Origin: a phage
Direction: 5' to 3' (one strand)
Sequence record: NC_111505.1
DNA: 64,000 bases
Part shown: positions 59,116 to 63,449 of the stretch, one piece after another
Layout: each line of letters starts with the position of its first letter
How positions within the stretch are numbered: the first letter of the stretch is position 1
Position numbers and translations under genes: made by a program
The notes under the pieces: model-generated
What the model was told of the DNA's origin: nothing
Seen by the model: only the letters and a program-made list of their open reading frames with translations
Database searches by the model: none

Positions 59116-59394
59116 ATGAGCTGCGAAAAATCTTTTTTCATCATCATTTACGGTAAGGATAACTGCCCACATTGTGTAAGAGCAAAAGAATTTGCAGTCA
59201 GTAAAGGCATACCTTTCGTATACAAGACGCTAGGTGAAGGATACACAAAAGAAGAGCTTATCGAGAAGTGTAGCCCATTTGTTCCCAGAACGTTGCCTCA
59301 GATCTTCTTGGAAAGCAACCTTGACAGTATTCACATAGGTGGTGCTGACGATTTCATCTCTTTTGTTAAGAATGGTTTTGGAGAGAAAAAGTGA
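59116..59394 (+). CDS. glutaredoxin-like protein
   Basis: 92-aa ORF with CPHC redox motif (YGKDNCPHCVRAKEF), between nrdB and nrdD. Confidence 0.6.
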   Translation: MSCEKSFFIIIYGKDNCPHCVRAKEFAVSKGIPFVYKTLGEGYTKEELIEKCSPFVPRTLPQIFLESNLDSIHIGGADDFISFVKNGFGEKK

Positions 59395-60551
59395 AAGTTG
59401 TAAAACGGGACGGTAGAGAAGAGTTTTATAACGGAATTAAGGTGATCAAGGCGGCAGAGTCCGCCTTACTTGAGTCTGGACATACTGAAGAAGAAGCTTA
59501 CCGGATTGCCTGTGCGGTTAATGAAGTTGTTGCCAACAATCTGCCAACTGACCAGTGCACGATCTCTGTAAAAAATATCCATATCCTTGTTGAAGATGCT
59601 CTTATGGATATGGGTTTAAAATGTGCAGCCAGAGAATACATCCAGTATAGACAGACAAGAGATAATAACAGAGAGGCAGGTGGAAAACTGCTTGCCGATA
59701 TTAGTGGCTTCTTGGATCGTACTTGTGATGAATTTACAAAAGAAAACGCAAATAAGCCTACTAATCATGTACACACTCATCGTGACCTGCTTGCAGGAAT
59801 CCTTAGCAAACATCTTGCATCAACACAGATCCTGCCAGACCGTGTCTCTGAAGAGCACAACAAAGGCTTCATCCATGTGCATGATCTTGACTACCTGATC
59901 AGTCCGTTAACAAACTGTTGTTTGGTAAATTATCCGGATATGCTGGAAAACGGATTCAACATTGGCAACGCCCATGTCAGTAAGCCGAAGTCAATAGGGG
60001 TTGCAACAACAATCCTTAGCCAAATCTCTAGTGCAGTAGCTAGTGCTCAATATGGCGGTCAGACCATGAGTCATATTGATCATTATTTGGCACAGTATGC
60101 TGAAGCAACTTATGAGAAGAACCTTAAATTTTGTCAGGAACATTGGTTGCCAGATGCTGAGACTGTTGCAATGCAAATGACAGATAAAGACGTGTTTGAT
60201 AGTATGCAAACTTTGCTCTACCAAATCAATACGTTAACTTCTGTCAACGGGCAAACCCCATTCATCACATTAAGTTTAGGGCTGGATACTTCGGTCTTTG
60301 GTAGAATGATTACCAAAAACTACTTGAAAGTTCACAAAATGGGTCTTGGTGAAGAACGGATCACACCTGTGTTCCCTAAAGTGCTGTTCTTCTTAGAGGA
60401 GGGTGTCAACATGAACCCTGGGGATCCTAACTACGATTTGAAACGGTTGGCCCTAGAATGCTCTGCAGAGCGGATTTATCCTGACTTTGTTTCTGTTCCT
60501 CTAAATCGTAAAGTGACAGGTTCAACAGACGGCAAAGTAACAAGCATGGGT
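59391..60551 (+). CDS. nrdD: anaerobic ribonucleotide reductase, exon 1
   Basis: GTG start overlapping the glutaredoxin stop (RBS GGAGAG). Exon ends after ...TSMG at U60551, which pairs with internal guide GCTCATG (60563..60569) to form a 7-bp P1. Confidence 0.8.
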
Positions 60552-61313
60552 AAACTATAACTGCTCATGTAAAATCTATCTAAACGGGGAAACTCCAGAA
60601 CGGACAATCCCGTGCTAAACGTAACAGAACTCCTGACTAAGAGGAGTCCTGAAATGAGAAAACAAATTCGTGATTTTGAAGGTTATGAAATTGACGAGAT
60701 GGGCAATGTTTATTGCACCCGATACGAAAATGAAAGAATTATTCATTCGTGGGAAGAGATAAACACAGGTTACCGTCTTGTCAGGATACGCAAGAACAAA
60801 AAGACTGTTTGCCTAAGGGTTCACAGACTTGTTGCTGAAGCGTTTTTACCAAATCCAGACAATTTACCATATGTTAAGCACAAAGGTGACAACAGGAAAG
60901 ATAACAGCGTATACAACCTTGAGTGGGGAGCTTGCCCAGACAATACTCAAGAAGGATACGACAACAACTGTTATGCTTTTTACACAAGATGTCACGGGGT
61001 GAAAGCCACCCACAAATTAACTGGTGTGGTTATTCACTTTAAGAGTCTGAGATGTTGTGCTGATGTTTTAGGAATAGATAGAAAAAGAATATCTGCTATC
61101 CTGAAACGTGGTGCACCTAATAACTATGATTACGAGTTCTGTTACGAAATGCCTAACGACTAACCGTGATGAATGTAGCGGTGTAGGGTGTAAGCTGATG
61201 ACACTCGAAATGGTAGACACACTAAGTGTGAAGATATAGTCTGATCTGCATGGGGACATGCAGCAGCACGTAAAGGTGCGGGGGTGGCCTTGCGAACCAC
61301 CTTGAACATAATG
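60552..61313 (+). mobile_element. group I intron in nrdD carrying an HNH homing endonuclease ORF
   Basis: 762 nt. 5' region AATCTATCTAAACGGGG...GACAATCCCGTGCTAAA and 3' end ...CATGCAGCAGCACG...GAACATAATG resemble T4 td-type group I introns as recalled; ends in G61313. Exons join in frame (SMG|CRSFL). Confidence 0.7.
60654..61163 (+). CDS. intron-encoded HNH homing endonuclease
   Basis: Start at ATG 60654 with RBS GAGGAG; HNH_3-type motif VHRLVAEAFLPNP...KHKGDNRKDNSVYNLEW. Confidence 0.65.
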   Translation: MRKQIRDFEGYEIDEMGNVYCTRYENERIIHSWEEINTGYRLVRIRKNKKTVCLRVHRLVAEAFLPNPDNLPYVKHKGDNRKDNSVYNLEWGACPDNTQEGYDNNCYAFYTRCHGVKATHKLTGVVIHFKSLRCCADVLGIDRKRISAILKRGAPNNYDYEFCYEMPND

Positions 61314-62276
61314 TGTAGAAGTTTCTTATCGAAATATAGCGACCCTGTAACAGGCGAGGAGAAATACCTTGGCAGATTCAACTTGGGTGTTGTTAGCCTT
61401 AACCTACCAATGATTGCGGCAAAAGCTAAGACGGAAGGTATTGATTTCTTTGCAGTTCTTGACGAATACCTGGATCTTGCATACGAGGCTCACCTTGTAA
61501 GGGTTAACCGTCTAAAAGGAACAAAGGCAGGGCAGAACCCTATCATGTGGTGTGAAGGAGCTCTTGCTCGCCTGGATCCTGAAGAGAGTATCGATAAACT
61601 CTCCTATGACGGGTACGCTTCCATCAGTATTGGGTATATTGGTGTGTATGAAACCTGTCAGATTTTGGGCAGAGAGGGTGACAAGGCTTTAGCTCTTGGA
61701 ATCCTTCAGCACATGAAAGATGCTTGTGAGCGATACAAGAAGGAAAGTGGACTAGCATTTAGCTTGTACGGCACACCTTCTGAGAGTTTATGCTATAAAG
61801 CTGCAACCTGTCTGGATCGTGAATACCCAGAAGTGTTGAAGCACGAGCATGAATACCTCACCAACAGTTTCCATCAGCCAGTATGGATCAATAGCTCGCC
61901 TTTTGATAAGTGGAAGTATGAGGAAGGTTTTGCTATGATCTCCTCTGGTGGCAACATTGGATACATAGAAACACCTAATCTGAAAAACAACCTGGATGCT
62001 TTGGAATCTCTTGTCGATTTCGGGTATAAACACATTATGTATTTTGGTATTAACCAACCTGTGGATAAATGTCTTAAATGTGGATTCTCTGGTGAGTTCA
62101 GTGCAACAGCTAAAGGCTTTGTATGCCCAGAGTGCGGAAACCATGAAGAGGGAACGATCAGTGTGATTAGACGTGTATCCGGGTATCTGTCCAGTCCAAA
62201 CTCCCGCCCTTACAATAAGGGTAAGCAAGCGGAGGTTATAGAACGGGTTAAGCACTACGGAAGTTGTGGTTGCTGA
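61314..62276 (+). CDS. nrdD: anaerobic ribonucleotide reductase, exon 2
   Basis: Begins CRSFLSKYSD... in frame with exon 1; C-terminal zinc site CLKCGFSG...CPECG and glycyl-radical motif RVSGYLS. Confidence 0.8.
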   Translation, partial: CRSFLSKYSDPVTGEEKYLGRFNLGVVSLNLPMIAAKAKTEGIDFFAVLDEYLDLAYEAHLVRVNRLKGTKAGQNPIMWCEGALARLDPEESIDKLSYDGYASISIGYIGVYETCQILGREGDKALALGILQHMKDACERYKKESGLAFSLYGTPSESLCYKAATCLDREYPEVLKHEHEYLTNSFHQPVWINSSPFDKWKYEEGFAMISSGGNIGYIETPNLKNNLDALESLVDFGYKHIMYFGINQPVDKCLKCGFSGEFSATAKGFVCPECGNHEEGTISVIRRVSGYLSSPNSRPYNKGKQAEVIERVKHYGSCGC

Positions 62277-62279
62277 TAC

Positions 62280-62309
62280 TTGACAAAAGTCACAAGGATG
62301 TGGCATATT
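62280..62309 (+). promoter_or_regulatory. candidate sigma70-type promoter
   Basis: -35 TTGACA (62280..62285) with a moderate -10 (CATATT, 62304..62309), 4 nt after the nrdD stop. Confidence 0.4.
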
Positions 62310-62339
62310 GTTGTCACACAGTAAACTAGGAGGTGCAGC

Positions 62340-62456
62340 ATGTCTACAGGTATTTATAAAATTTGCAAGTGTGGTTGTCATTGCAATCTTCGTTGGTGTA
62401 AGGCACTGGACGATTTTATTTGGCATTGTCCTAAATGCGATGCGGAGTATGTATGA
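62340..62456 (+). CDS. small Cys-rich zinc-ribbon-like protein
   Basis: 38-aa ORF (MSTGIYKICKCGCHCNLRWCKALDDFIWHCPKCDAEYV) with strong RBS AGGAGGT; its stop overlaps the nrdG ATG. Too short for the supplied ORF track. Confidence 0.3.
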   Translation: MSTGIYKICKCGCHCNLRWCKALDDFIWHCPKCDAEYV

Positions 62457-62926
62457 ATATTGTCGGGTATACAGAGATATCTTACACCGAGGGACCGGGT
62501 ATTAGGACAGCTTTGTGGGTATCTGGGTGCCCACACGCTTGCCCTGGTTGCTTTAATCAAGCATTTTGGTCAAAAGATAAAGGAAGAGAGTTCACCGAAG
62601 AAGATTTGCAGAAAGTTTTGTCGGACTTAGACAATGAATCTGTATGCGGTATTTCTTTACTTGGTGGAGAGCCTTTGGCTACTTATAATGAGCCAGGTAT
62701 TATTGACCTTATGAGGAGAATTAAGGAAAAGTTTGGTGACAAGAAAACTATTCTTGTGTATACTGGGTTCACATTTGAGCATATCTCTAGTGATGTTCTT
62801 AAACTGGCTGATATCGTCATTGATGGAAAGTATGTAAAAGATTTACCAACCAAGAAACCATTTCGAGGCAGTGATAACCAAAGAATGTTTAAAAAGGTAG
62901 CAGGAGGTTGGGTTCAGGTTGACTAA
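62453..62926 (+). CDS. nrdG: anaerobic ribonucleotide reductase activating protein (radical SAM)
   Basis: Start at ATG 62453; GPGIRTALWVSGCPHACPGCFN matches the NrdG cysteine-cluster region. Confidence 0.75.
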   Translation: MNIVGYTEISYTEGPGIRTALWVSGCPHACPGCFNQAFWSKDKGREFTEEDLQKVLSDLDNESVCGISLLGGEPLATYNEPGIIDLMRRIKEKFGDKKTILVYTGFTFEHISSDVLKLADIVIDGKYVKDLPTKKPFRGSDNQRMFKKVAGGWVQVD

Positions 62927-62929
62927 TTG

Positions 62930-62959
62930 TTGACAAAGTCTTGTTAAGTTGGTTATAAT
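62930..62959 (+). promoter_or_regulatory. sigma70-type promoter
   Basis: -35 TTGACA (62930..62935), 18-bp spacer, -10 TATAAT (62954..62959). Confidence 0.5.
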
Positions 62960-62988
62960 TAGCGTAATGAAAGCAGAGGAGGTGCCCA

Positions 62989-63102
62989 ATGGCTAAAAAG
63001 GCCTTGAAGAAGGCGTACAAAAAAGAGATTGCGCTTGAGCTTAAGAAAAAACACAAGCGTGAAAAGAAACATCATGAGGATGAAGAGGGGGTGCAACAGT
63101 GA
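62989..63102 (+). CDS. small Lys-rich protein
   Basis: 37-aa ORF (MAKKALKKAYKKEIALELKKKHKREKKHHEDEEGVQQ) with RBS AGAGGAGGT; its stop overlaps the next GTG start. Confidence 0.25.
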   Translation: MAKKALKKAYKKEIALELKKKHKREKKHHEDEEGVQQ

Positions 63103-63449
63103 CACAAGAACGTATCGATTTGGCTAATAAGTTTGTAGATCTCATTTTGCCACGGTTAGTTACTCAACATGCGGACGCTATTTCTACTAATCTTGATGGC
63201 TTACGCCTGATGCTGAATCGCACAGATGACCCTCGTATTCGGGCTGATTTAGAAGCCTCTGCCAACAAACTGGAAAAGTTCTTGCAAGTGGACACGCAAG
63301 AAGCCTTGCACAAGATTATGGTGGAAGGTTTCTCTAAAGAATTTACCATTAAAGAGCTTAAGGAGCTGATCCACCAAGAAGAGATGAATATCCGAGTTCA
63401 GGCTGTTGCAAGCAGCATGGAAGCGGCTATTGAAAAACTATTGCAGTAA
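63099..63449 (+). CDS. hypothetical protein
   Basis: 116-aa ORF with GTG start, predicted helical. Confidence 0.45.
   Translation: MTQERIDLANKFVDLILPRLVTQHADAISTNLDGLRLMLNRTDDPRIRADLEASANKLEKFLQVDTQEALHKIMVEGFSKEFTIKELKELIHQEEMNIRVQAVASSMEAAIEKLLQ

Follow-up and report, generated by a model that had tools for sequence, protein, structure and literature searches.

The 38-codon open reading frame (ORF) that lies between the two anaerobic ribonucleotide reductase genes of the phage analysed here is best read as an exchangeable zinc-binding accessory cassette rather than as a part of the class III reductase, a statement that, taken as a whole, we consider correct with a probability of about 0.6. 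Its coding sequence is conserved, its product resembles a zinc ribbon with additional cysteines, and the same gene is found in an unrelated group of Escherichia coli phages, where it is joined to a different downstream gene.

A small gene at the nrdD-nrdG junction

The window, that is, the whole 64,000-nucleotide stretch of phage DNA under analysis, is of FV3-like Vequintavirus type; its region 59.4-63 kb is a nucleotide-reduction block, and positions 62200-63000 are 98.3% identical to Escherichia phage FV3. The small ORF runs on the + strand from an ATG at 62340 to a TGA at 62454-62456 (62340..62456) and encodes MSTGIYKICKCGCHCNLRWCKALDDFIWHCPKCDAEYV; from the ORF list, a match to phrog_20137, its pN/pS ratio and an AlphaFold2 model we describe it as a putative mini zinc-ribbon gene of the phrog_20137 family with seven cysteine codons, the Cys7 gene. 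The first-pass annotation had placed it between the two anaerobic reductase genes, with an AGGAGGT ribosome-binding site and a stop codon overlapping the nrdG start, and each of these readings is borne out. Upstream, on the same strand, exon 2 of nrdD (61314..62276), which encodes the glycyl-radical domain and a C-terminal zinc ribbon (Pfam NRDD and Gly_radical), ends at 62276; downstream, also on the + strand, lies nrdG (62453..62926), the radical SAM activase of class III ribonucleotide reductase (Pfam Fer4_12, E 9.5e-43, and Radical_SAM). The Shine-Dalgarno sequence AGGAGGT can be read at 62328..62334 (+ strand), with a 5-nt spacer to the ATG, and a similar AGGAG or AAGGAG precedes the small ORF in all aligned Vequintavirus-type homologues; the two copies from the genus Vectrevirus, described below, have just GAGGA, some 11 nt 5' of the start. 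In the gap that separates the end of nrdD from the small ORF, a consensus scan detected a sigma-70-like promoter candidate on the + strand (TTGACA-18-CATATT with TG before the -10, 62280..62309, 10/12 matches), whose sequence is kept in three of the other loci (L003, L006, which is rV5, and L011), wherever nrdD immediately precedes the small ORF.

At the 3' end, the TGA of the small ORF overlaps the ATG of nrdG (62453-62455) as ATGA (62453-62456), and a GGAG within the final Ala-Glu-Tyr codons of the small ORF (62444..62447, + strand), 5 nt 5' of the nrdG ATG, is likely to be the Shine-Dalgarno sequence of nrdG. The surrounding CGGAGTA is invariant in 14/14 distinct DNA versions of the gene, and in the Vectrevirus copies it precedes the ATG of a DNA ligase. 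An ATGA or GTGA overlap is present in 12 of these 14 versions, and two rV5-type versions end in TAA. With an overlap and an embedded Shine-Dalgarno sequence that are both conserved among relatives, the small ORF and nrdG bear the marks of a translationally coupled pair; the stop/start overlap with nrdG is conserved in two Vequintavirus lineages, the window type and the one in which the small protein has a Lys/Glu-rich (K/E) extension.

The neighbourhood shows other features. In the window, nrdD is interrupted by a 762-nt intron (60552-61313) with an HNH_3/NUMOD-like homing endonuclease ORF (60654-61163), and joining 59391-60551 to 61314-62276 yields a 707-aa protein identical at 694/707 positions, with no gaps, to the uninterrupted NrdD of rV5. 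Rfam Intron_gpI matches at 61029-61263 with 32.9 bits (E 4.3e-6), which is under its gathering score of 50. The content of introns and endonucleases in nrdD varies among close relatives (L001, which is FV3, L002, L007 and L008): FV3 has nrdD split at another position than the window; L008 has it in three pieces with two inserted ORFs, and a free-standing DUF723/HNH_3 gene precedes the small ORF; in rV5 and S127 BCL3 the gene is uninterrupted. In O157 typing phage 14 (L005), a 386-aa ORF (279-1439) with four KYDYSxVxYV...CPxHGEF repeats, CxxC pairs and a terminator-like hairpin on its 3' side has been inserted after nrdD, ahead of the small ORF, and looks like a free-standing homing endonuclease. 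Downstream of nrdG there is a perfect sigma-70 consensus (TTGACA-18-TATAAT, 62930-62959), marked P118 in rV5, and after it an ORF for a Lys-rich protein of 37 aa (62989-63102). The stop codon of this ORF shares bases with the GTG that starts the ORF 63099-63449, and both FV3 and rV5 annotate the 37-aa product as a hypothetical protein.

Coding evidence and corrections to existing annotation

The presence of a 38-codon ORF says little by itself, as 75 ORFs with 25 aa or more fall wholly or partly within the surrounding 5 kb. Homologous stretches collected from phage records, IMG/VR, Logan/ENA contigs and metagenomes provided 20 loci with 14 distinct DNA versions of a 28-codon core. Across these 14 versions, the frame of the small ORF has a pS of 0.546, a pN of 0.059 and a pN/pS of 0.11, while the two other frames reach pN/pS values of 1.23 and 1.51, and the variable columns are distributed over codon positions 1/2/3 as 9/2/19. 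Six of the seven cysteines fall within the core, and at each of them both TGT and TGC are used and the residue stays constant. Homologues of different length, among them a 41-aa form with CKHCGC and forms of 53-54 aa with an N-terminal Lys/Glu-rich extension (one lineage), differ by whole codons. The small ORF is also the richest in cysteine among the 183 ATG-initiated ORFs of 30-60 aa in the window. Judged by these substitution patterns, the protein is under strong purifying selection, and we have very little doubt that the small ORF is a genuine protein-coding gene. The ORF list that accompanied the DNA had been noted to contain only an ORF in a different frame at this place, and this fits, as the 65-aa ORF 62308-62505 is the sole entry at the default cut-off of 60 aa; it was rejected as a coding sequence, both alternative frames having pN/pS >1.

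The gene had also been thought to be unannotated, which is true of FV3, whose record has no small CDS, but not of many Vequintavirus records (e.g., EPFV3-03/2025, S127 BCL3, WalterGehring), where the CDS is called a hypothetical protein, nor of PHROG, while rV5 annotates another frame. The gene is already catalogued and not new: it has its own family, phrog_20137, which the product matches over its full length (E 6.3e-30, 103.9 bits, residues 1-38 on profile positions 1-38/38) and which we take as the same family. The Vectrevirus and 41-aa variants likewise match phrog_20137. Literature searches found no publication on the small protein. What the analysis yields is above all corrective, for the small gene and nrdG in FV3, rV5 and PHROG/RefSeq. 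In the FV3 record, nrdG begins at the ATG equivalent to 62435, giving a 163-aa product and masking the small ORF. The nrdG homologues of all lineages begin MNI or MNV, which corresponds to 62453 here and is preceded by GGAG, and by this comparison the shorter version starting at 62453 is almost certainly right, which would put the FV3 start 18 bases too early. In rV5, gp109 (L006 2936-3163) is an ORF in a different frame that overlaps the Cys7 ORF and is equivalent to window 62308-62505; it is probably a mis-call, because both alternative frames have pN/pS >1. Lastly, phrog_20137 is labelled 'ribonucleotide reductase', and the RefSeq name of the CDS in FFH2 and JES2013 is identical; this label appears to have been borrowed from the neighbouring genes and, unlike what it implies, the product is a small 38-aa Cys7 peptide without a reductase domain.

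Sequence and predicted fold of the protein

The cysteines of the peptide are at positions 9, 11, 13, 15, 20, 30 and 33. In 13 aligned proteins the invariant residues are C9, C11, G12, C13, C15, L17, R18, W19, C20, L23, D24, D25, I27, W28, C30, P31, C33, E36 and Y37, and the family pattern can be written C-x(1,2)-C-G-C-x-C-x4-C-x9-C-P-x-C. The two pairs of cysteines expected of a zinc ribbon, C9/C11 and C30-P-x-C33, are thus invariant in the 13 proteins and the 14 DNA versions, with a knuckle spacing of CxC or CxxC, then 18 residues, then CPxC. In the variants of 41 and 53-54 aa the C9/C11 knuckle becomes CxxC, and these read as a textbook zinc ribbon (CxxCG, 17 residues, CPxC) with three additional cysteines. 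The first-pass annotation had seen zinc-ribbon clusters in C-x-C-x-C-H-C and HCPKC, and the Cys knuckles, with a tentatively ribbon-like model, support it in this; its two histidines, however, are not conserved, as position 14 varies among H, R, S, K and E and position 29 between H and Y in the aligned homologues, which argues that neither is a ligand.

An AlphaFold2 model computed from the family alignment has a mean pLDDT of 68.9, a moderate value, with strands at 16-20, 25-30 and 35-37. The best 30 Foldseek matches to this model in the PDB are mostly zinc ribbons, including those of Rpb9, the N-terminal domain of a NUDIX protein and Thermus ZifS, with TMq 0.64-0.74 and rmsd 1.1-1.5 Å, at E values of at least 0.47, which carry no significance with a chain this short. 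In a profile search of the PDB, the matches were weak and non-significant; they comprised the IWHCPKC ribbon motif of eL43 and a zinc-finger micro-protein of CPxCG type. Scans of the peptide against Pfam and NCBIfam with E up to 1 found no match, and neither did rubredoxin, ferredoxin or Fe-S family profiles of the same two collections at that threshold. Taken together, the alignment and the model make a mini zinc ribbon the best-supported fold, one that we consider probable, and C13, C15 and C20 could serve as an interface or hold metal, either in a second site or in a cluster.

Distribution

A tblastn search located the peptide in ~120 phage records, essentially all of the genus Vequintavirus, in which almost every member has the gene, placed without exception between nrdD and nrdG. 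The family amounts to 14 clusters among 5.8 billion proteins when queried with the alignment; when 1.84 billion representatives were searched with a profile, all credible matches belonged to the family (a low-complexity repeat protein, P0015, was judged spurious), and 185,579 bacterial and archaeal genomes contained no confirmed relative. Scans of viral and metagenomic contigs detected relatives in Vequintavirus-like and Vectrevirus contigs only; two weak matches (L013 and L026), one per type of scan, were rejected, as both are out of frame inside unrelated genes, a tail-fibre gene and a gene of a high-GC bacterial contig. Across these collections, two unrelated groups of Escherichia coli phages are the only carriers of the gene. 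Eighteen of the ~120 phage records, numbered MG0656xx and named 'Campylobacter phage' (host Campylobacter jejuni), have this region at a sequence ~90% identical to E. coli Vequintavirus, which suggests that they are mislabelled or contaminating coliphages. Two variants depart from the usual form: in phage Alma (P0003) a frameshift replaces the last residues after CPECDA, and in a 1.5-kb ENA contig (P0014) a deletion joins residues 1-20 of the Cys7 protein to a gp111-like C-terminal part. These could be sequencing or assembly artefacts, or a sign that the gene is dispensable.

Relation to the class III reductase

From its position, the first-pass annotation had proposed that the small protein could be an accessory factor of the anaerobic reductase. 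Stated in full, this explanation holds that it is dedicated to the class III enzyme, is made in step with NrdG by translational coupling and binds NrdG or NrdD, for example as a donor of zinc or Fe-S, as a rubredoxin-like electron carrier for the cluster of the activase, or as a stabiliser of the C-terminal ribbon of NrdD. There are good reasons to consider it. The small ORF sits between nrdD and nrdG in every Vequintavirus examined, so that conservation at this place, the check that had been suggested, holds throughout that genus; the ATGA/GTGA overlap with nrdG is conserved in two lineages; and the gene is tightly coupled to nrdG in ~85 window-type records and in the K/E-extended lineage. 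In addition, NrdD is 98% identical between the window and rV5, and a conserved NrdD surface could explain a conserved small protein, while the CxxCG...CPEC pattern resembles the NrdD ribbon CLKCG...CPECG.

Nevertheless, comparison beyond and within the genus leaves the idea poorly supported. The check fails in Phapecoctavirus phAPEC8 and Seunavirus EspYZU08, the nearest outgroups examined, in which the nrdD stop overlaps the nrdG start directly and nothing lies between. Nor does the gene follow nrdD and nrdG as a class III accessory would be expected to, with 2,151 phage records having an NrdG match against ~120 with the small ORF, and no such ORF in ~2,000 further phage records with NrdG matches of <60% identity. 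The small ORF of 33 rV5-type records ends in TAA and is followed by gp110, gp111 and then a different nrdG allele, so that two ORFs part it from nrdG. Nucleotide homology between the window type and the rV5 type ends at about nt 110 of the 117-nt ORF; the alignment thus marks a recombination breakpoint at the 3' end of the small ORF, and the point at which homology stops indicates that the ORF belongs to the conserved block on the nrdD side and not to nrdG. The small protein does not co-vary with NrdG, the three nrdG alleles (window, rV5 and K/E-extended) being 50-57% identical versus 86-100% for the paired small-protein cores. The gene also occurs without the reductase, beside a DNA ligase to which it is coupled, in the Vectrevirus phage ACG-C91 and contig L009, and in ACG-C91 neither nrdD nor nrdG was found by annotation or tblastn. 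Similarity to the C-terminal ribbon of NrdD reached a probability of 10% with hhalign, leaving homology to it unsupported, and the missing rubredoxin and Fe-S matches also count against a cluster carrier. On these genomic comparisons, we consider it quite likely that the small protein is not a dedicated accessory of NrdG or NrdD, and the full explanation set out above is correspondingly improbable. Given the tight coupling to nrdG and the near-universal placement between nrdD and nrdG in Vequintavirus, the small protein might still work together with NrdD, which is highly conserved, or with the NrdDG of the host.

Exchange between inter-cistronic slots

Outside Vequintavirus, the small gene is present, with 74-82% identity and all cysteines kept, in the SP6-like podovirus vB_EcoP_ACG-C91 and the related metagenomic contig L009. 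There, its neighbours are a DUF3310 nucleotide kinase upstream and a DNA ligase downstream, the ATG of which shares an ATGA with the stop of the small gene. The flanks of this kinase-ligase slot are identical (upstream ...GATGAGGATATTT(G/A)AT-ATG; the ligase begins ATGAATAT), and the slot has three alternative occupants, each with a stop that overlaps the ATGAATAT of the ligase: ACG-C91 and L009 have the Cys7 gene there, K1E and fTuEco01 a 38-aa CPNCG...CHSC ribbon that is unrelated to it, and Mt1B1_P10 a non-Cys protein of 57 aa (phrog_15259). Most copies of nrdG also start with ATGAATAT(T/C), and two start with ATGAAC; the two kinds of slot thus share 8 nt at the 3' junction, a match that may have favoured transfer. 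The Vequintavirus nrdD-nrdG interval is plastic as well, containing the Cys7 gene with or without gp110/gp111, and with or without upstream free-standing homing endonuclease genes of three types. The Vectrevirus copies could be the product of a recent, functionless transfer, but the two diverged copies keep the frame and all cysteines, which speaks against it.

A second small gene may be shared between the nrdD-nrdG and kinase-ligase slots. In rV5-type genomes nrdG is coupled to gp111, and the gp111 of rV5 (L006 3269-3505) contains a stretch (DDGCYWFVSYQGD) weakly similar to one (NDEGAMWFLSAYGSD) in the 57-aa protein of Mt1B1_P10 (L018 699-872), with a BLASTP E of 6e-4 over 30 aa; the two proteins are placed in different PHROGs (phrog_3249 and phrog_15259).

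Discussion

Our analysis suggests that the product of the small ORF would be a free-standing, 38-residue, metal-binding mini zinc ribbon, whose knuckles C9/C11 and C30-P-x-C33 most likely hold one zinc ion, and whose invariant cysteines 13, 15 and 20 could provide a second metal site or a contact surface. Its gene would behave as a cassette, inserted at a cistron junction in an operon for DNA or nucleotide metabolism and bringing its own Shine-Dalgarno sequence, from which it would be expressed, possibly with transcription from the promoter candidate at 62280. The embedded GGAG and the ATGA overlap would then pass ribosomes to whatever gene lies downstream, nrdG here and DNA ligase in Vectrevirus. 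The presence of the gene in two unrelated E. coli phage families and its near-constant sequence amid diverging neighbours suggest that the protein works in trans, on a target that both kinds of infection have in common. From this distribution we infer that the target would most plausibly be an E. coli host factor or a general component of replication or nucleotide metabolism. The two slots offer a clean example of small phage genes swapped through inter-cistronic positions between unrelated E. coli phages, each insert supplying a ribosome-binding site and an ATGA overlap for the gene that follows.

A more specific version of the cassette reading can be formulated, in which the three extra cysteines of the Cys7 protein build a binuclear Zn site or an Fe-S site and the protein acts on a conserved Escherichia coli factor, with dNTP supply, the class III reductase machinery or an immunity system as candidates. 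We consider it speculative and rather unlikely. If true, it would define a new class of host-directed micro-proteins, traded between myoviruses and podoviruses via junction slots that are ready for coupling, and, if the host target were correct, the 38-residue protein might possibly become a useful tool.

Other explanations fare worse than that of a dedicated reductase factor. Typing phage 14 (with a product of 386 aa), L008 (DUF723/HNH_3) and WalterGehring have free-standing homing endonuclease genes directly 5' of the ORF, and nrdD carries intron-borne endonucleases, so the ORF might be a module or remnant linked to these elements, such as a detached DNA-binding zinc finger or a marker of a landing site. 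But most genomes have the ORF without an adjacent endonuclease gene, the three endonucleases are of unrelated types, none is near the Vectrevirus copies, and the small protein has no similarity to them beyond generic CxxC; a connection of this kind is very unlikely. Still less probable is that the peptide itself is irrelevant and that its translation only delivers ribosomes to nrdG, or senses the supply of cysteine through a run of Cys codons. The stop/start overlap, the Shine-Dalgarno sequence of nrdG embedded in the ORF and the seven Cys codons preceding the gene for a Cys-ligated 4Fe-4S enzyme would suit such a leader; a pN/pS of 0.11 and invariant Trp, Asp, Pro and Leu besides Cys would not, and the ORF is intact in rV5-type genomes though uncoupled from nrdG, while sister phages couple nrdG straight to nrdD and do without it. 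As for a chance ORF that is no gene, to which the abundance of short ORFs in the 5 kb and the missing Pfam or NCBIfam match might point, it is scarcely credible in view of pN/pS values of 0.11 versus >1.2 in the other frames, indels by whole codons, retention in two unrelated phage groups and a strong Shine-Dalgarno sequence.

Among known systems, the C-terminal ribbon of NrdD itself (CLKCG-x14-CPECG, in nrdD exon 2 of the window) has in common with the small protein the generic CxxCG...CPEC pattern and genomic adjacency, and differs in its spacing and in being part of a 707-aa enzyme. Ribbons of the Rpb9/TFIIS type, ZifS (8yoz), the Haloferax 'small CPxCG-related zinc finger protein' (8q5b), to which there is a weak profile match, and eL43 are alike in having two Cys knuckles 18 residues apart and, as predicted for the small protein, a three-stranded sheet, and the second knuckle of eL43 (IWHCPKC) matches its own. 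None of these named ribbons shows a significant sequence match to it or has a counterpart of its extra invariant cysteines 13, 15 and 20, and its first knuckle sets it apart from them, being CxC in most members and CxxC in some. The 38-aa ribbon of K1E and fTuEco01 differs from the Cys7 protein in having just four cysteines and an acidic tail, and homology between the two is unsupported (hhalign aligned 8 columns in the wrong register, with 36% probability). Even so, it belongs to the same length class, occupies the same slot with the same ATGA overlap with the ligase, and has an identical 18-residue gap between the second cysteine of knuckle 1 and the first cysteine of knuckle 2.
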